Below, in pieces: positions 448-23,550 of a stretch of 23,864 nt of DNA. The position numbers and the translations under genes are program-made. A model generated the notes under the pieces. It was given only the letters and a program-made list of their open reading frames with translations. It was not told the DNA's origin and did not search any database. The number at the start of each line of letters is the position of its first letter. Within the stretch, counting starts at the first letter, position 1. Origin of the DNA: a virus; the UHGV virus genome UHGV-1462696, one strand, 5' to 3'.

Positions 448-488
448 GAGTAGATTATGCATGATGAATTTGATGGATTTTGAATACT

Positions 489-514
489 GCCGCCAACTAT
501 GGCGGCTTTATTTT
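489..514 (+). terminator. Intrinsic terminator (GCCGCC-aactat-GGCGGC followed by TTTATTTT)
   Basis: 6-bp GC stem, 6-nt loop and T-run read directly; downstream of the 101-439 gene and of palindrome A. Confidence 0.6.
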
Positions 515-525
515 GCATGGTACTA

Positions 526-540
526 TTACCACAACGGTAA
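526..540. promoter_or_regulatory. TTACC-N5-GGTAA palindromic motif (variant, spacer ACAAC), 18 nt upstream of the terminase small subunit start
   Basis: Read directly; one of six TTACC-N5-GGTAA sites in the window. Confidence 0.4.
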
Positions 541-557
541 CAATTACCACGGTGGTT

Positions 558-1154
558 ATGATGCCTGCTGAACCTAAAACCTATAAACGCAAATCAACGC
601 AATTTAAGCCGCTCACAGCAATGCAGGAGGCTTATTGCCAGTCATACATCAAAACGCCTGAAAACCAGACTCAGGCTGCGATTAACGCAGGATTCTCCCC
701 AAATACAGCGGCAGTTAAAGCCAGTGTCATGATGCGCGATGAACGCATTCAGAAACGGATTGCCGAGTTGATGGAGGAGCGCAACAAACGAATGCGTGTC
801 AGTGCTGATTACGTTCTCATGCGCCTGGTGGAGATCGACCAGATGGACGTGATCGACATCCTCAACGACGATGGGAGCCTTAAACCAATCCGTGAGTGGC
901 CGAAAATCTGGCGCACTACGCTTAGTGGCTTTGATCTGTCATCGACCATCATGAACATGAACGAGGATTCAATAGAGACAATCCTCAAAAAAATTAAATG
1001 GCCTGACAAGGTGAAGAACCTTGAGCTGATTGGTAAGCATGTTGATGTCAACGCATTCAAAGAACGTCTGGATGTTAATGTGAATGTGACAATTGCTGAT
1101 CGCATAGCAGCAGCCAGGAAGCGACTCAAAGAACGTCAGGATGATAATCAGTGA
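558..1154 (+). CDS. terS: Terminase small subunit (Terminase_2 / P27-type, N-terminal HTH)
   Basis: Motif QEAYCQSYIKTPENQTQAAINAGFSPNTAAVKAS matches the conserved N-terminal DNA-binding signature of Terminase_2-type small subunits. The track ORF begins at 480, but its first 26 codons cover the terminator hairpin and are low complexity; ATG at 558/561 is the likely start. Stop overlaps the large subunit start. Confidence 0.8.
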   Translation: MMPAEPKTYKRKSTQFKPLTAMQEAYCQSYIKTPENQTQAAINAGFSPNTAAVKASVMMRDERIQKRIAELMEERNKRMRVSADYVLMRLVEIDQMDVIDILNDDGSLKPIREWPKIWRTTLSGFDLSSTIMNMNEDSIETILKKIKWPDKVKNLELIGKHVDVNAFKERLDVNVNVTIADRIAAARKRLKERQDDNQ

Positions 1155-2626
1155 CAGATACAGCGTTATCTCCTGAAGAGCAGTTAATCGAGGATATTGC
1201 AGGGTTCACTCACGATCCACTTGGATATGCCCTCTATGCGTTCCCGTGGGGGGAAGAGGGGACTGAACTGGCACATGCCACCGGTCCACGTCAGTGGCAG
1301 GCCGATGCGTTCCGAGAGATACGTGATCATTTGCAGAATCCAGAGACGCGCTATCAGCCGCTTATGCTGGCACGTGCTTCTGGTCACGGTATTGGTAAAT
1401 CCGCATTCATCTCAATGCTGATCAACTGGGGCATGTCCACTTGCGAGGATTGTAAGGTCGTGGTGACCGCCAACACCGACAACCAGCTACGAACGAAGAC
1501 CTGGCCGGAAATTATCAAGTGGTCGAACCTTGCTATCACGAAAGACTGGTTTACCTGTACCGCTACCGCGATGTACAGCAATGACCCTGGGCACGACAAG
1601 CGGTGGCGGGCTGACGCAATACCCTGGTCTGAGCACAACACTGAGGCGTTCGCCGGACTACACAACGAGCGCAAACGCATCATCGTGGTGTTTGATGAAG
1701 CGTCGAACATTGCGGATCTGGTGTGGGAAGTTGCCGAGGGGGCGCTTACGGACGAAGACACTGAGATTATCTGGGTGGCGTTCGGAAACCCGACGCGTAA
1801 TACCGGACGTTTCCGCGAATGTTTCCGCAAATATAAACACCGCTGGAAAACTGCGCAGATTGACAGCCGGACGGTGGAAGGCACTAACAAACAGCAGTTG
1901 CAGAAATGGGTTGATGACTACGGGGAAGACAGCGACTTCGTTAAAATCCGTGTGCGCGGCATATTCCCTGATGCATCTGAATTGCAGTTTATCCCTACCG
2001 GCCTTACTGACGAGGCAATGAAACGGGGGGTAACTGCTGCGCAGGTGGCACATGCTCCGGTGATAATCGGCGTTGACCCGGCATACTCCGGCGTTGATGA
2101 CGCTGTGATATACCTGCGGCAGGGGCTGCACAGTAAGGTGCTGTGGACTGGCAACAAGACCACTGACGATCTGATTATGGCGAAGCGCATCGCTGACTTT
2201 GAAGACCAGTATCAGGCTGACGCGGTATTCATCGACTTCGGTTACGGAACCGGTTTGAAGTCAATCGGTGATGGCTGGGGACGTACATGGCAACTTGTTC
2301 CGTTCGGTGGCGCGTCTACTGACCCGCAGATGCTCAACAAGCGTGGGGAGATGTTCAACTCATGTAAGACATGGCTGAGGCTGGGCGGTATGCTGGATGA
2401 CCAGGAAACAGCGGACGACCTGTCGACGGCAGAGTACAAAGTTCGCGTGGACGGTAAAATCGTTATCGAACCGAAGGAAGATATCAAAGAACGACTTGGG
2501 CGTTCGCCGGGGAAAGGCGATGCGCTATTGCTGACGTTTGCTTTCCCTGTGTCGAAGCGCCTGCGAATTCCCGGTCAGCAGAACCAGCAAGGCAAGGCCA
2601 TCACAGATTACGACCCGTTTGCGTGA
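1151..2626 (+). CDS. terL: Terminase large subunit (ATPase plus nuclease)
   Basis: 491 aa; Walker A-like ARASGHGIGKS, Walker B-like IIVVFDEAS, C-terminal RNaseH-like nuclease segment (VIIGVDPAYSG); GTG start overlapping terS stop (GTGA). Confidence 0.88.
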   Translation: MTDTALSPEEQLIEDIAGFTHDPLGYALYAFPWGEEGTELAHATGPRQWQADAFREIRDHLQNPETRYQPLMLARASGHGIGKSAFISMLINWGMSTCEDCKVVVTANTDNQLRTKTWPEIIKWSNLAITKDWFTCTATAMYSNDPGHDKRWRADAIPWSEHNTEAFAGLHNERKRIIVVFDEASNIADLVWEVAEGALTDEDTEIIWVAFGNPTRNTGRFRECFRKYKHRWKTAQIDSRTVEGTNKQQLQKWVDDYGEDSDFVKIRVRGIFPDASELQFIPTGLTDEAMKRGVTAAQVAHAPVIIGVDPAYSGVDDAVIYLRQGLHSKVLWTGNKTTDDLIMAKRIADFEDQYQADAVFIDFGYGTGLKSIGDGWGRTWQLVPFGGASTDPQMLNKRGEMFNSCKTWLRLGGMLDDQETADDLSTAEYKVRVDGKIVIEPKEDIKERLGRSPGKGDALLLTFAFPVSKRLRIPGQQNQQGKAITDYDPFA

Positions 2627-2627
2627 T

Positions 2628-3368
2628 TTATTGCTTATTTTTCACGGCTTCAGCAATCATTCTCTCAGCCTGTGATGTATATGTTTTTCGCAAGGGTTCA
2701 TGGCCCATATGCAATACGATACTTTCCTTTTCTTTTTCCTTTAATTCTTGTATGAGATTATTTATTTTGGCCTCCCTATCTTCAAGCATTCTGGCGGACT
2801 TTTCTGCCTCAATCTTTAACGCTGCAGCCACTGATTGCATGTTTTCCAGCTTCTTATTCAATTCCAAAACCTTATCGGAGAGCCTATCTCTTTCCGACGT
2901 TAGCTCACCCATCCTGGCCTGTGACTCCGTAATTCTTTCCTTCATAGCCTGTATGTCTTTTTCGGCGCCAGTCTTAACTTTGTCGTATGTCACATCGTGC
3001 TTTGCCTTCAGGCGCTGCAGGCGTGTGGCGCGATGAATGCGCTTGGCCTTCCGGTGGTTCTCTATCGAATCGTAATTATCAAGAGGTTTGGCTTGCCACT
3101 TTGAAATCACGTTGTTGATCCAGGGCATGCCGCCGCACAGGATTATTGCTGAAACACATGGGAATGCTAATACCGTTTTCCAACTGCTATTGCTGGAAAT
3201 GTAGGTGATCTTGTCGATGATGCTGGAGTCGCTGAGGAGTAAGTATAAAATCGACTTCCAGTTAAAGGCGCACCATGACAGTGCGAACGCTCCAAACACT
3301 GGATTTCTGACCCTTTGCGCAGCGGTATTAACGGTTGAAGATAGGTATTCTTTAAGTGATTCAAGCAT
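2628..3368 (-). CDS. Membrane-anchored coiled-coil protein of unknown function (accessory; candidate abortive-infection / superinfection-exclusion effector)
   Basis: 246 aa; two hydrophobic segments in the N-terminal ~90 aa (FGAFALSWCAFNWKSILYLLL; VLAFPCVSAIILCGGMPWI) followed by ~130 aa of heptad-like charged sequence; AT-rich relative to flanks by eye; AAGGG SD upstream of ATG at 3368; opposite strand to the late operon. Confidence 0.6.
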   Translation of the reverse strand: MLESLKEYLSSTVNTAAQRVRNPVFGAFALSWCAFNWKSILYLLLSDSSIIDKITYISSNSSWKTVLAFPCVSAIILCGGMPWINNVISKWQAKPLDNYDSIENHRKAKRIHRATRLQRLKAKHDVTYDKVKTGAEKDIQAMKERITESQARMGELTSERDRLSDKVLELNKKLENMQSVAAALKIEAEKSARMLEDREAKINNLIQELKEKEKESIVLHMGHEPLRKTYTSQAERMIAEAVKNKQ

Positions 3369-3398
3369 GTCCAGGCCCTTTTAGGTTTTTTTCTGATT

Positions 3399-3413
3399 CT
3401 ACCTTTAAGGTAA
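3399..3413. promoter_or_regulatory. TTACC-N5-GGTAA-type palindrome (CTACC-TTTAA-GGTAA) in the promoter of the 246-aa gene
   Basis: 31-45 nt upstream of the ATG at 3368; on the gene strand the site reads TTACCTTAAAGGTAGAAT, so the -10-like TAGAAT overlaps it. Confidence 0.5.
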
Positions 3414-3480
3414 TCTTCGGTCATTATGAAAAACGTATCCCTATGAGGGGATAATGTCGTTGATATCCTCTGATGAGGAT

Positions 3481-3511: not shown

Positions 3512-3523
3512 GTGACATGTCAC
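3512..3523. repeat. Perfect 12-bp palindrome GTGACATGTCAC, copy B
   Basis: Read directly; 5 nt after the stop codon (3528-3530, minus strand) of the 123-aa gene. Confidence 0.9.
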
Positions 3524-3527
3524 GGTG

Positions 3528-3899
3528 TTATTGCTCGCTTAGCTTCTGCTTCAGCAAGTAACCTTCGAGCATCCAGATTTTGTTTACAGCATTCTGCCGG
3601 GCAATCTTCCGACCAATTTCTGCATCAAAGTTTTCATGGCTTGCACAGGCGCTTTCTCCGGTTACAGTAAATCCGTTGCGCAGCACCAGAACGCAGAAGG
3701 TCAGCAGAGAAAGTGATTCGTGCGGCTGGTAGTTTACCTCTCCGCCAGTATGTTTCGCTTTTATGGCTTTGCCAAAGGCACCATCTTCTGCTGTGAAATA
3801 TGCCTCCTGAGCAATAATGCCTTCGATATGGTCTGGCGTAACGCGCGGTGCCGTTTTGCCTTTCTCAACGATTTCTTTTTCGATTTGCTTGTCGTTCAT
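3528..3899 (-). CDS. Hypothetical small phage protein (possibly Gp49-like family)
   Basis: 123 aa; strong SD AAGGTGA 4-5 nt before ATG at 3899; central motif CVLVLRNGFTVTGESACASHENFD resembles small conserved phage proteins; family assignment is from memory only. Confidence 0.55.
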   Translation of the reverse strand: MNDKQIEKEIVEKGKTAPRVTPDHIEGIIAQEAYFTAEDGAFGKAIKAKHTGGEVNYQPHESLSLLTFCVLVLRNGFTVTGESACASHENFDAEIGRKIARQNAVNKIWMLEGYLLKQKLSEQ

Positions 3900-3910
3900 A
3901 ATCTCACCTT

Positions 3911-3934
3911 AAAAAAATGCCCGGCGAACCGGGC
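3911..3934 (-). terminator. Intrinsic terminator on minus strand (GCCCGG-ttcg-CCGGGC followed by ATTTTTTT), immediately upstream of the RBS of the 123-aa gene
   Basis: Read directly from the reverse complement of 3911-3934. Confidence 0.6.
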
Positions 3935-4010
3935 GAACTGGAAGCAATGAGTTATGCCTTCCGTGGCTGTACGTGTTTACAGCATGAAGTCATCGCAATG
4001 GCGTCCTGCT

Positions 4011-4054: not shown

Positions 4055-4097
4055 AAGCACCTGGAACTTCTGGCATCACGGTCCTTAGGCGTGATTC

Positions 4098-4174: not shown

Positions 4175-4496
4175 AACGCTGAGAGCACTTAGCCTGTTAA
4201 GGCGCCACACTTTGTCGCGGCTCCATAAATGCTCTCATCGTTGTACCCTCGTCTCTTCCGAGGCGTCACACCGAATCGCCGGGATGGTGAATCCCCGTGC
4301 GCGGAATAAAACCGCTCGACTTGCACATTCCGGCTACCTGGTTCGTTTGCCCGAGCAAGGGAGGGTGTCCCTTAAACGTATCCAGACCGCTATCGGCGCA
4401 TGTGCCATACGCCGTACTGCTCAAAATAAAAGCTCACTCCACCTGTTCAATTTAACGACAAGCCAGTCAGGTTAATAACCGGAATGAACCCTTTAC

Positions 4497-4511
4497 TTAC
4501 CTGAAAGGTAA
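4497..4511. promoter_or_regulatory. TTACC-TGAAA-GGTAA palindrome (17-mer identical to the site at 23536) in the divergent region between the tRNA and the portal module
   Basis: Read directly; 91 nt upstream of the ATG at 4602. Confidence 0.55.
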
Positions 4512-4601
4512 TAATTTGTGCGTTAAATGTCAACTTCCTACGATAAATAAATCATATGTGGTTAAATTGGTAATAATTTAATTGCGTACGGAGTCATTGA
4601 T

Positions 4602-4822: not shown

Positions 4823-6502
4823 ATGGCGGAAACAACTAAAGAGCGATTGAACAAACAGTTCGCACAACTTGAAAGCGAGCGTCAGTCGTTCGAGCCGCAC
4901 TGGCGCGAGTTGAGTGATTACATCAACCCGCGTGGTTCCCGCTTTCTGACTTCTGAGGTCAACCGTAACGATCGACGCAATACACGCATTATTGATTCGA
5001 CCGGGACTATGGCGGCGCGCACTCTCGCCAGCGGCATGATGTCAGGCATCACAAGCCCCGCGCGTCCGTGGTTTCGCCTGGCTACGCCAGATCCTGAAAT
5101 GATGGATTATGGCCCTGTTAAGTTGTGGCTTGAGGCGGTGCAGAACCGCATGAACGATATGTTCAATAAGTCGAATCTCTATCAGTCGCTGCCGCAGTTA
5201 TACGGAAGCCTCGGCACATACAGCACTGGTGCAATGGCAGTGCTGGAGGATGACGAGGACATCATTCGCACAATGCCATTCCCGATAGGCAGTTACTACC
5301 TGGCTAACTCACCTCGTGGCAGTGTGGACACCTGTTTTCGCAAGTTCTCTATGACTGTTCGTCAGCTTGTTCAGGAGTTCGGGCTAAATAACGTCAGCGA
5401 ATCCGTAAAAAGCATGTGGGAAAGCGGCACTTACGAGAAGTGGATTGAAGTGATGCATTCGGTTTACCCGAACATTGACCGCGATACATCGAAGCTGGAT
5501 AGCAAGAACAAGCCATTCAAATCGGTTTATTACGAGGTTGGCGGCGATAACGACAAGTTGTTGCGTGAGTCCGGATTCGATGAGTTTCCAATTATGGCTC
5601 CGCGCTGGGAAGTTAACGGCGAAGATGTTTATGGATCATCATGCCCGGGTATGCTGGCGCTTGGACCTGTTAAGGCATTGCAGCTTCTCCAGAAGCGCAA
5701 GTCGCAGTTGATTGATAAAGCCACCAATCCGCCGATGGTTGCTCCGACTTCCCTCAAGAATCAGCGCGCCTCCCTTCTTCCTGGCGACATCACGTATATC
5801 GATCAGATTACTGGTCAGGATGGTTTCAGGCCTGCTTATCTGGTTAACCCCAGTACAGCAGATCTGGTGGCAGACATTCAGGACACTCGCCAAATCATTA
5901 ACAGCGCCTACTTTGTCGATCTGTTCATGATGTTGCAGAACATCAATACCCGCTCGATGCCTGTTGAAGCGGTGATCGAAATGAAAGAAGAAAAACTTTT
6001 GATGTTGGGGCCGGTTCTGGAGCGTCTGAACGACGAATGTCTTAATCCTCTCATTGATCGCGCTTTCTCGATGATGGTGCGTAAAAACATGCTGCCGCCA
6101 CCGCCTGACGCGATGGAAGGCATGCCCCTGAAGGTCGAATACATTTCCGTCATGGCTCAGGCGCAGAAGTCTATCGGCCTGTCCAGTCTGGCGTCCACGG
6201 TTAACTTCATTGGTCAACTTGCGCAAGCGAAACCAGAAGCTCTCGACAAACTCAACGTTGATCAGGCGATCGATGCATTCGCTGATATGTCCGGAGTGTC
6301 TCCAACCGTCATTGTTCCGCAGGAACAGGTTGAGCAGGCTCGCCAGCAACGGGCACAGCAGCAACAGCAGCAACAAATGATGGCGATGGGGATGGCGGCG
6401 GCACAGGGTGCCAAGACGCTAAGCGAAGCTAAAACTTCGGATCCGAGTGTTTTGTCAGCTATGGCGAATGCAGTTAGTGGTCAGGGTGGGCAATCACAAT
6501 GA
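4823..6502 (+). CDS. Portal protein (T7 gp8-like head-to-tail connector)
   Basis: 559 aa; position after terminase; Q/M/A-rich C-terminal tail (QQQQQQQMMAMGMAAAQG) resembling the T7 gp8 C-terminus; strong SD. Confidence 0.75.
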   Translation: MAETTKERLNKQFAQLESERQSFEPHWRELSDYINPRGSRFLTSEVNRNDRRNTRIIDSTGTMAARTLASGMMSGITSPARPWFRLATPDPEMMDYGPVKLWLEAVQNRMNDMFNKSNLYQSLPQLYGSLGTYSTGAMAVLEDDEDIIRTMPFPIGSYYLANSPRGSVDTCFRKFSMTVRQLVQEFGLNNVSESVKSMWESGTYEKWIEVMHSVYPNIDRDTSKLDSKNKPFKSVYYEVGGDNDKLLRESGFDEFPIMAPRWEVNGEDVYGSSCPGMLALGPVKALQLLQKRKSQLIDKATNPPMVAPTSLKNQRASLLPGDITYIDQITGQDGFRPAYLVNPSTADLVADIQDTRQIINSAYFVDLFMMLQNINTRSMPVEAVIEMKEEKLLMLGPVLERLNDECLNPLIDRAFSMMVRKNMLPPPPDAMEGMPLKVEYISVMAQAQKSIGLSSLASTVNFIGQLAQAKPEALDKLNVDQAIDAFADMSGVSPTVIVPQEQVEQARQQRAQQQQQQQMMAMGMAAAQGAKTLSEAKTSDPSVLSAMANAVSGQGGQSQ

Positions 6503-6795
6503 CAGATTACGAAGACGATCAACTGAAAGAAGAAAACGCCCGTAAGCAACGTGACATGGCACAGCGTGAAATTGATGACATTCGCTTTGTCATGAGCAGT
6601 GAACAGGGGCGTCGGGTTGTCTGGTCGGTACTGGAGAAAGGCCGTGTGTTTTCCGCTATCTCGCCGATGGACGCTATGGCAATGGCATTTAATGAGGGGC
6701 AACGCAATCTGGCGCTGGAACTGTTTCAGCGCGTTATGGCGCATTGCCCTGAACAGTATTTGAAGATGGCCAAAGAGGCCAGTGAACAGGAGTGA
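6499..6795 (+). CDS. Hypothetical protein (98 aa) between portal and scaffold
   Basis: ATGA start/stop overlap with portal, consistent with translational coupling. Confidence 0.55.
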   Translation: MTDYEDDQLKEENARKQRDMAQREIDDIRFVMSSEQGRRVVWSVLEKGRVFSAISPMDAMAMAFNEGQRNLALELFQRVMAHCPEQYLKMAKEASEQE

Positions 6796-21230: not shown

Positions 21231-21242
21231 GTGACATGTCAC
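21231..21242. repeat. Perfect 12-bp palindrome GTGACATGTCAC, copy C
   Basis: Read directly; 2 nt after the stop of the 186-aa gene and immediately before a terminator. Confidence 0.9.
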
Positions 21243-22088: not shown

Positions 22089-22103
22089 TTACCCTTGAGG
22101 TAA
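22089..22103. promoter_or_regulatory. TTACC-CTTGA-GGTAA palindrome adjacent to the predicted promoter of the small-ORF / YafO-like unit
   Basis: Read directly; 61-75 nt upstream of the ATG at 22028. Confidence 0.5.
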
Positions 22104-22886: not shown

Positions 22887-23041
22887 GGTGGTTATCTCCA
22901 CTTAGTGATTTTAATCACCACCGCAACGCCAATTACTGGTGGTGAACTGGACAAGGTTGGCGTACCGGCCTAAGTGGTACCGGCGTCCTTTCGGACCCCT
23001 GCCCAGCCCACCATAATTCGGATATGGCTGTGCTTAACGCA

Positions 23042-23065
23042 TAAAAAAACCACGTCTGGCGTGGT
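23042..23065 (-). terminator. Intrinsic terminator on minus strand (ACCACG-ccaga-CGTGGT followed by TTTTTTTAT)
   Basis: Read from the reverse complement; downstream of the truncated ant paralog. Confidence 0.6.
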
Positions 23066-23155
23066 ATGCGCCACTTAGTAACTCGGGACGCCAATCCCGG
23101 CACTGGATTTTGCCAGTGCCCGATTACTATGGCACAAGAGGAGTGCGATGTAAAT

Positions 23156-23170
23156 TTACCGCAAAGGTAA
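23156..23170. promoter_or_regulatory. TTACC-GCAAA-GGTAA palindrome embedded in the 30-nt loop of a 10-bp inverted repeat (AGAGGAGTGC 23137-23146 / GCACTCCTCT 23177-23186)
   Basis: Read directly. Confidence 0.5.
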
Positions 23171-23201: not shown

Positions 23202-23459
23202 TTATCTGGTTTGTTTTCGTAATTGTTCGGCACAATAGTCGAGATGTGTTTGCAGATCCCGCATAGACATCTGTGAGCTGGTGACGTAGTTAATCAGTGC
23301 AGTCAGTTCGGCAAGTGGGCCATCGACATTAAATCCATCCTTATCGAGATCCCGGAGTAATTTCATCAAGTGCGATCCCTCCACCAGTGACCTGACGCCT
23401 CCCGGCGTGTGAATCCTTTCGGTAAATCCGTCTTCCAGTGGATAGTGATACTGCTGCAT
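23202..23459 (-). CDS. Stand-alone paralog of the antirepressor C-terminal domain (about 85 aa)
   Basis: ERIHTPGGVRSLVEGSHLMKLLRDLDKDGFNVDGPLAELTALINYV...RDLQTHLDYC aligns with SLIHSPSGVLGLTENSLLMNLLNQLQEDGHDVSGAAAELTTMFCYI...RDIQTHAEYI in the ant product; ATG at 23459 with GGAG SD; the track ORF begins at 23525. Confidence 0.6.
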   Translation of the reverse strand: MQQYHYPLEDGFTERIHTPGGVRSLVEGSHLMKLLRDLDKDGFNVDGPLAELTALINYVTSSQMSMRDLQTHLDYCAEQLRKQTR

Positions 23460-23535
23460 CTTATCTTCTCCATGTAATAACTGTATATTTATACAGTAGC
23501 AAATAATTTGTTTGCTATCCAGCACGTTTTGCGAA

Positions 23536-23550
23536 TTACCTGAAAGGTAA
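23536..23550. promoter_or_regulatory. TTACC-TGAAA-GGTAA palindrome in the divergent region between the ant paralog and the tail fibre gene
   Basis: 17-mer TTACCTGAAAGGTAATA identical to the site at 4497; 105 nt upstream of the tail fibre ATG. Confidence 0.55.

Follow-up and report, generated by a model that had tools for sequence, protein, structure and literature searches.

Several described systems bring a terminator, a stable RNA or an accessory gene together in ways that recall the locus treated here. Leaky-terminator operons are known from E. coli tyrU-tufB, and partial terminators of the tR1 type from lambda. Phage morons are promoter-gene-terminator units inserted between essential genes, and anti-defence loci of the anti-CRISPR/Aca type have a repressor-controlled promoter. 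RNAs of the 3'ETS-leuZ type, which are 3' external-transcribed-spacer (ETS) RNAs of transfer RNAs (tRNAs), end in the terminator of their operon, and GOLLD and ROOL are large structured, phage-associated RNAs found next to tRNAs. The put RNA of phage HK022 is a cis-acting antiterminator RNA (PMC9378689). The locus in question is the leader of a 123-amino-acid (aa) gene on the minus strand of UHGV virus genome UHGV-1462696, where a hairpin with a U-run directly abuts the Shine-Dalgarno sequence (SD) of the gene. The window (the whole stretch of DNA analysed, 23,864 nucleotides, nt) comes from an epsilon15/phiV10-like (Uetakevirus) phage or prophage, and phiV10 and the O157 typing phages 9 and 10 match it at ~96% identity. 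A sequence-only reading of this DNA had listed a tRNA, two terminators, an SD and an ATG in that order on the minus strand, and the series was recovered at the same positions: tRNA-Arg(TCT), hairpin H1, a 76-nt spacer, hairpin H2, the SD AAGGTGA, the ATG, the 123-aa open reading frame (ORF) and a third terminator, T3. The elements next to the gene are as follows.

4174–4098, minus strand: tRNA-Arg(TCT) in a cassette slot (ARAGORN; Rfam tRNA, 73 bits)
4054–4011, minus strand: H1, internal terminator-like hairpin with a 14-base-pair (bp) stem and an 8-nt loop (hairpin 4054–4019), followed by CUUUUUAC
3935–4010, minus strand: 76-nt spacer (GCCAUUGCGAUGAC, GCUGUAAAC, GGAAGGCA ... CUUCC)
3934–3911, minus strand: H2, predicted intrinsic terminator at the 3' end of the non-coding unit, GCCCGG-UUCG-CCGGGC (stem-loop 3934–3919) followed by A and U7 (3918–3911)
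3910–3904, minus strand: SD AAGGTGA, the dock for cargo ORFs, starting at the first base after the U-run
3899–3528, minus strand: 123-aa cargo gene, Acb4 family by Pfam (PF13876, 118 bits against a cut-off of 27)
3512–3523: 12-bp palindrome GTGACATGTCAC, right-hand boundary of the cargo slot
3507–3480, minus strand: T3, predicted terminator after the cargo gene, AGCCAGC-CGAUGA-GCUGGCU (hairpin 3507–3488) followed by UUGUUUU

Our preferred account, which we regard as probable and not as secure, is that H2 ends a conserved upstream unit, that the SD behind it serves as a dock for swappable ORF cassettes, and that the docked genes are expressed by passive read-through. H2 has the sequence features of an intrinsic terminator, with six G-C pairs, a UUCG loop, a U-tract directly 3' of the stem and compensatory changes among relatives. 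Predicted folding energies are -12.7 kcal/mol for H2, -24.1 for H1 (z = -3.7) and -13.5 for T3, whose phiV10 counterpart is annotated as a rho-independent terminator. The number of terminator-like sites is in itself unremarkable (6 in 3 kb vs 3.3 +/- 2.1 in shuffled sequences; the output of a perfect-stem terminator finder, which misses bulged and long-loop hairpins, was not used for counts), so that the argument for function has to come from a comparison with relatives. Scanning IMG/VR with the H2 pattern yielded 120 further loci, 126 in total. Because this sample is biased by the H2 pattern, relatives were also retrieved via the portal protein alone, without reference to H2, which gave 13 enterobacterial prophages with 66–84% portal identity.

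An H2-like hairpin with U7-8 is present in all 13 portal-anchored relatives. Its stem, read directly from the sequences (the MAFFT alignment misplaced indel-bearing hairpins), occurs among relatives as GCCCGG/CCGGGC, GCCCAC/GUGGGC, GCCCUC/GAGGGC (Providencia) and GCCUCC/GGGGGC (Rahnella). The changes are compensatory (GG/CC, AC/GU, UC/GA), with one U.G variant in addition, and the variable positions covary solely with one another. The Salmonella phage SPN9TCW keeps the tRNA, H1, the spacer, H2 in the doubly compensated form GCCCAC...GUGGGC, the U7 tract and the SD, and the ORF behind them is unrelated; in TL-2011b, the 120 nt behind H2 and U8 are different DNA that includes a promoter-like site, ahead of another gene. 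SD and ATG stand directly behind the U-run in 8 of the 13 portal-anchored loci, each time with a different ORF, and five loci have no abutting SD. Promoter-like leaders follow H2 in L129, L132, L135 and L136, and no SD-led ORF follows it in L137 (Providencia). Since H2 is kept whether or not an SD-led ORF comes next, it belongs to the upstream unit, and this pattern identifies it as the predicted intrinsic terminator of that unit. The primary job of H2 would thus be to end the non-coding unit. The stem of H1 is kept while its loop varies (L128, L130); in L126 a non-homologous hairpin with U7 takes its place, and L127, L133 and L129 are without it. A bidirectional terminator for late plus-strand transcripts is ruled out, as the plus-strand versions of H1 and H2 have no U-run.

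The gene behind H2 is interchangeable cargo. SD and an ATG 4–8 nt later are found in 98 of the 126 H2-bearing loci, and the docked ORFs in this set form 14 BLAST clusters, with at least 12 unrelated families. The same U-run/SD junction stands before unrelated ORFs in at least eight genera, and the design persists in Rahnella, where the hairpin has diverged and the SD is different. The cargos comprise Acb4-like proteins (61 loci), Tad2-like proteins (PF11195, Thoeris anti-defence 2), an HNH endonuclease, a membrane protein and several families of no known function; a PADLOC scan of the cargo proteins was uninformative. At the other end, 83 of 96 loci of the SD type have GTGACATGTCAC behind the stop codon of the cargo (at exactly +4 in 72), whichever cargo it is, and the third terminator comes next. 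The window holds three exact copies of GTGACATGTCAC and one with a mismatch, against 0.06 expected. Judged from these loci, the dock has H2-U7-AAGGTG(A) as its left edge and GTGACATGTCAC as its right edge, and bare ORFs are exchanged in between. H2 as part of an Acb4-like gene cassette was considered and ruled out: a Stx2 phage carries a 95%-identical Acb4-like gene without the hairpin, and the homology ends at the ATG. The copies of GTGACATGTCAC (436–447, 3512–3523 and 21231–21242, with the near-match at 6551–6562) lie on or just after the stops of three accessory ORFs, and the one at 21231 also precedes a terminator-like hairpin.

The 123-aa protein is assigned to the Acb4 family by its Pfam match, which covers the whole profile (1–82 of 82), and is a putative cyclic-nucleotide sponge directed against the cyclic-oligonucleotide-based anti-phage signalling system (CBASS). 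The sequence match to the SPO1 Acb4 structure 9e4w is weak (E = 0.008, residues 66–108). PF13876 is defined as the Acb4 family of viral sponges for CBASS nucleotide signals, and 3'3'-cyclic GMP-AMP was bound by all eight Acb4 homologs tested (PMC11722364). The Acb4-like cargos are under purifying selection, with ratios of nonsynonymous to synonymous substitution (dN/dS) of 0.04–0.31 among 44 alleles. The distant alleles have dS > 1, and over the same distances the SD, the U-run and H2 do not change.

The sequence-only reading had stated that there is no room for a promoter between H2 and the ribosome-binding site, and no promoter-like sequence was indeed found there. It had left two sources for the transcript, read-through or a promoter between the terminators, of which read-through is supported and the intermediate promoter is not. 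A sigma-70 scan of 4010–3899 revealed no promoter-like site, inspection of the spacer and the H2-SD interval by eye turned up no convincing promoter of the sigma-54 or extended -10 type or on the plus strand, and in L127, L133 and L134, which have no spacer, an SD-led ORF still abuts H2. An internal promoter is therefore unlikely, both in the spacer and between H2 and the SD, and without one the gene would have to be transcribed through H2. We propose that polymerases would start at a promoter at 4533–4505 and transcribe a structured 5' domain, the slot, H1, the spacer and H2, and that the fraction failing to stop at H1 and H2 would continue into the docked promoter-less ORF. Leaky termination would thereby set a fixed ratio of non-coding RNA and tRNA to cargo mRNA. 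On/off control would come from a factor bound to an operator at the promoter and not from the hairpins, and regulation in time most plausibly acts at this operator-bearing promoter. The remaining elements of the upstream unit are listed below.

4505–4533, minus strand: candidate sigma-70 promoter, -35 TTGACA (4533–4528), N17, -10 TACCTT (4510–4505)
4497–4511: operator-like palindrome TTACCT-N3-AGGTAA (TTACCTGAAAGGTAA), overlapping the -10 element and the predicted start
4223–4429, minus strand: structured 5' RNA domain of ~200 nt (P1 hairpin at 4414–4394, invariant GGUAGCCGGAAUGUGCAAG, a hairpin with a UCACC loop and the hairpin CCUCG-GAAGAGA-CGAGG), with a proposed UCACC/GGUG pseudoknot
4175–4240, minus strand: closing helix GAUGAGAGCA ... 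UGCUCUCAGCG and 5' flank of the cassette slot, read from alignments
4075–4095, minus strand: hairpin AUCACG-CCUAAGGAC-CGUGAU, the 3' flank of the slot, kept after tRNA and non-tRNA inserts

Alignment of the relatives shows ~620 nt of conserved non-coding DNA upstream of H2; the unit measures ~590 nt in the window and 230–1081 nt among relatives. Conservation suggests that it starts at the 4533–4505 promoter, where 16 of 17 loci keep both hexamers at a distance of 17 nt and differ in the letters of the spacer (the -10 of Providencia is TACATT). The palindrome TTACCT-N3-AGGTAA occurs five times in the window against 0.03 expected, its position is conserved in distant relatives, and it is probably the operator of a phage regulator. 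The five copies (3399–3413, 4497–4511, 22089–22103, 23156–23170 and 23536–23550) each lie upstream of a minus-strand accessory gene, and two of them are also located 70–82 bp upstream of promoter-like sites of the portal and tailspike operons.

The cassette slot holds tRNA-Arg(TCT) in 84 of 109 units, and none of the 13 portal-anchored relatives has a tRNA. The remaining units have inserts of 60–190 nt that combine an acceptor-like stem with CCA and a T-arm-like hairpin; these were negative in ARAGORN searches for tRNA and transfer-messenger RNA (tmRNA), and may be RNase P substrates. The closing helix changes from GAGAGCA/UGCUCUC to AAGAGCA/UGCUCUU in L131, and the flanks are kept around different inserts. 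As read from these comparisons, the tRNA is a cassette inside the upstream unit and does not represent a separate gene with terminators of its own. A tRNA promoter directly upstream of the tRNA was rejected, as conservation begins 14 nt before the tRNA and the flanks are common to the non-tRNA inserts. At least seven different non-tRNA inserts were seen between GTTGTGG and CCACAAC (L131, L118, L126, L115, L127, L031 and L133), with an acceptor-like stem of 7–8 bp; one insert resembles a tRNA with an insertion of ~55 nt, and some units have two slots. The 76-nt spacer is near-invariant in 98 unique sequences (a sample chosen by the H2 pattern) and absent in several genera.

The 5' domain is a real and widespread covarying RNA that has no Rfam match and no annotation in the records examined. 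RNAalifold on 11 lineages gave 39 pairs, 12 of them with double compensatory changes, and 96% of cells were paired. Against these 12 covarying pairs stand 6.3 +/- 1.3 in shuffled alignments (0 of 500) and 1–3 in slid controls. Invariant G.U pairs on the minus strand argue for an RNA transcribed from that strand. The domain is present as a single copy in the window (nhmmer E = 1e-46). Rfam 15 gave only tRNA matches in the window and nothing relevant at E <= 1 in six relatives. A motif scan placed the domain on at least 120 IMG/VR contigs; among copies that are not in the Uetakevirus-type context, upstream neighbourhoods of 26 kinds and downstream ones of 12 kinds were distinguished. At below 93% identity, 53 variants can be distinguished, with covariation in three helices. 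The domain occurs in 1840 of 5426 complete E. coli genomes (34%), with 554 places on plasmids, and no RNA feature is annotated for it among the listed E. coli genome matches; E. coli K-12 CPS-53 is without the element. Klebsiella, Enterobacter and Stenotrophomonas phages have it as well.

In phages P1 (L246, 2488–2682), P7, D6 and SJ46, the domain is found 14 nt after trnI and ~100 nt before ban, within the C1-controlled ban operon, and in P1 this is 2.3 kb into the operon. In cdtI (L247, 2488–2691), Stx2c, some Stx2a and mEp390-type lambdoid phages, it directly follows the cI terminator and a promoter, TTGACA-N17-ATAATG, that has CI-operator-like palindromes; this is the position of the left promoter (PL). 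Behind the domain come a slot, an H1-like hairpin and early genes of the yfdP/Q/R type. Searches of the literature on phiV10/Uetakevirus transcription, the RNA sequence and the P1 ban leader returned no relevant description.

These settings bear on the alternative that survives best, although we judge it unlikely: the 5' domain would modify RNA polymerase in cis, in the manner of HK022 put, so that H1 and H2 are passed efficiently and H2 stops other transcription. The copies of cdtI and Stx2c, just downstream of the cI-adjacent promoter, occupy the position that nutL has in lambda and putL in HK022, ahead of the early-left genes and of terminator-like hairpins, and the examined stretch has no gene annotated as N-like; the P1 copy is inside a long operon, just before ban; and a sponge protein would gain from high expression. 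However, no terminator was seen between the P1 element and ban, and cdtI has a single copy with no counterpart on the PR side. An nhmmer profile of the domain found nothing in the HK022 immunity region (E >= 0.86), and the put regions, when read, showed no similarity to it, neither putL nor putR. A variable cassette moreover stands between the domain and H2, and the dock survives when the domain is deleted: units without P2–P5 and half of H1 retain H2, the SD and cargo ORFs that are intact and differ from one another, with a ratio of nonsynonymous to synonymous polymorphism (pN/pS) of ~0.3 for the Acb4-like alleles. Several lineages also have a separate promoter-like leader after H2. The short units (230–420 nt; L004, which is VB_ST_E15, L029, L089, L039 and L093) look like deletions between repeated copies of UUCCCUUGAUGCU, one in the 5' domain and one in the H1 loop, which remove the core domain, the slot and half of H1 and keep H2, the SD and the cargo.

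Passive leakage has difficulties of its own. H2 looks efficient, with its all-GC stem, UUCG loop and U7 tract, and the -10 element TACCTT at the head of the unit is weak. A sponge protein that acts stoichiometrically is an awkward fit with leakage through two terminators, and the promoter-like leader that the next gene brings along in some lineages suggests that H2 blocks most transcription. The covariation of H2 amounts to only 3–4 independent changes, and the 13-locus portal set is the sole unbiased sample of loci, the large samples having been retrieved by pattern. The PL-proximal domain of the lambdoids and the likely need for an abundant sponge favour assisted read-through, and factor-dependent antitermination may operate as well. 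Passive leakage is favoured by the deletion units that keep dock and cargo, by the lack of similarity to put and by the second leaders behind H2.

We consider it quite unlikely that the junction is a neutral mosaic boundary, formed at terminator/SD microhomology, with no regulatory role and a cargo that is poorly or incidentally expressed. Mosaic boundaries at gene borders are usual in phages, and the dock is filled by a vestigial 8-codon ORF in some loci and by truncated cargos in others. Yet a junction that is base-identical before many unrelated ORFs in so many genera, and of the same design in Rahnella, a right-hand boundary of equal precision and the purifying selection on the cargo all speak against neutrality. 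The vestigial ORF (MKYEFDGF; L038 and four similar loci, just after H2) ends in GAATTTGATGGATTTTGA, and the same 18 nt directly precede the small-terminase start (window 464–482), which hints at recombination between the dock and this start.

Very unlikely, in our estimate, is an unrecognised or phage-specific promoter in the 76-nt spacer, with H2 as an mRNA-stabilising hairpin of the 5' untranslated region and the U-run as a translational enhancer. U-rich tracts upstream of an SD act as S1-binding enhancers, the spacer is as conserved as the tRNA in the Escherichia and Salmonella lineages, and promoters of a non-sigma-70 type would escape the scan. The negative sigma-70 scan and the dock-keeping lineages without the spacer oppose this, and a transcript started in the spacer would meet H2 and U7 within 80 nt. 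Sequestration of the SD was likewise rejected: the minimum free energy fold of the window pairs AUAACUCA with the SD region, and the upstream segment is not conserved and shows no covariation with the SD spacer.

The sequence-only reading had proposed conditional regulation of the cargo gene by attenuation or antitermination. Classical attenuation at H2 or H1, in which an uncharged tRNA, a protein, a leader peptide or a ligand would switch the RNA between terminator and antiterminator folds, has in its favour the two hairpin and U-run elements before a gene with no promoter-like site after them, and a predicted fold in which the U-run of H1 pairs with a conserved downstream segment (UUUACAGCA with UGCUGUAAA), but it is highly improbable, since H2 forms readily in the predicted nascent RNA (base-pair probability 0.88–0.99 in 12 lineages, whether 120 or 250 nt of the upstream sequence are included) with no competing or antiterminator fold and no segment complementary to its arms in those lineages, its variable positions covary only mutually, H2 is conserved even before genes with their own promoter-like leader or no gene at all, lineages without spacer and H1 keep the dock, and the spacer, read by eye, holds no conserved leader ORF (the 13-codon ORF MTSCCKHVQPRKA has no SD, and its frame is not conserved in SPN9TCW). 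No Rfam aptamer matches the window.

The surroundings of the cargo gene include the following features.

480–2626, plus strand: small and large terminase genes
4823–6502, plus strand: portal gene
2628–3424, minus strand: second, separate cargo unit, a 246-aa ORF (3368–2628) behind the promoter-like site ATGACC-N17-TAGAAT (3424–3396)

The minus-strand block that separates the terminase genes from the portal gene is accessory. The promoter-like site of the 246-aa ORF holds a TTACCT-N3-AGGTAA palindrome (3399–3413), and this type of leader comes directly after H2 in other loci. The ORF itself is absent from phiV10 and belongs to PHROG 4780, a family without assigned function, with weak matches of coiled-coil type only. 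Elsewhere in the window, a Bro-N antirepressor-like gene (22901–22176, minus strand) is preceded by the palindrome, a leader of ~250 nt and the terminator-like hairpin CCACGCCAGACGTGG with U7 (23064–23043; region 22902–23170), a promoter-leader-terminator-gene layout as at the cargo locus. A small minus-strand protein with the same C-terminal domain as the Bro-N antirepressor-like protein probably starts at an ATG at 23459. About 25 nt upstream of this ATG, inside the promoter-like sequence TTGCTA-N17-TATTAC, is a LexA-box-like CTGTATATTTATACAG (23481–23496), which suggests an SOS-controlled antirepressor.

For the leader of the 123-aa gene, the terminator on the ribosome-binding site would represent the fixed left edge of a cargo slot and not a private, riboswitch-like control. 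If this is correct, the temperate phages of a common E. coli and Salmonella group tie the expression of Acb4/Tad2-family sponge homologs to an upstream non-coding RNA/tRNA unit and to the promoter of that unit with its operator. The frame H2-U7-AAGGTGA ... GTGACATGTCAC could be used to harvest candidate anti-defence genes, most ORF families in it having no known function. As far as we have found, the dock cargo is largely anti-defence, and the unit is widespread and undescribed in the literature searched. If it controls transcription or counters host defences, the 5' domain, which lies at the PL position of N-less lambdoid phages and in the P1 ban operon, would represent a novel phage RNA element, and a very common one. 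A bolder and unlikely reading is that the RNA domain, the tRNA-shaped slot and the terminator/SD dock form one undescribed early accessory platform, shared wholly or partly by epsilon15-like, lambdoid and P1-like phages. In its strongest form, the RNA domain would be a new class of cis-acting antiterminator, analogous but unrelated to put, that would take RNA polymerase past H1 and H2 so that anti-defence cargo such as Acb4 and Tad2 is expressed; alternatively, the RNA would itself be an anti-defence or tRNA-maturation factor.

The locus has parts in common with each of the systems named at the outset. Like GOLLD and ROOL, the unit would yield a long, covarying, phage-borne non-coding RNA able to enclose a tRNA, whereas its sequence and architecture are different, it has no Rfam match at E <= 1 and its host range is in the Enterobacterales. 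As in 3'ETS-leuZ, a conserved tRNA trailer ends in a hairpin and U-run, which could be the 3' end of an Hfq-type RNA; here, however, the trailer is absent in several genera. The parallel with HK022 put is that a structured RNA, in the lambdoid relatives, would open a repressor-controlled early transcript upstream of terminators, in a promoter-proximal position in the early operon of Uetakevirus and cdtI-type phages, but 2.3 kb into the ban operon in P1; the domain is also ~200 nt long as opposed to ~70 nt, and its deletion variants keep the cargo dock. Loci of the anti-CRISPR/Aca type resemble the present one in having anti-defence cargo (here Acb4-family and Tad2-like) behind a promoter overlapped by an inverted repeat; they differ in that no aca-like helix-turn-helix gene is found in our unit and that a long non-coding RNA and two predicted terminators precede the cargo. 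In operons of the tyrU-tufB type, as proposed here, a stable RNA and a protein gene share an upstream promoter, and the hairpin and U-run between them would set their ratio. In the phage locus, by contrast, the U-run touches the SD, two terminators stand in series, the downstream ORF is swappable, and the upstream part is a structured RNA of ~590 nt with a slot, not a plain tRNA operon. With morons, finally, the locus shares the accessory character of its DNA, which is inserted between terminase and portal opposite to the late genes, bounded by terminators and variable among close relatives. True morons with a promoter of their own occur at this site too (the 246-aa unit; the TL-2011b and L129/L132 types), whereas the docked ORFs are promoter-less and are exchanged bare between a fixed SD and a fixed palindrome.

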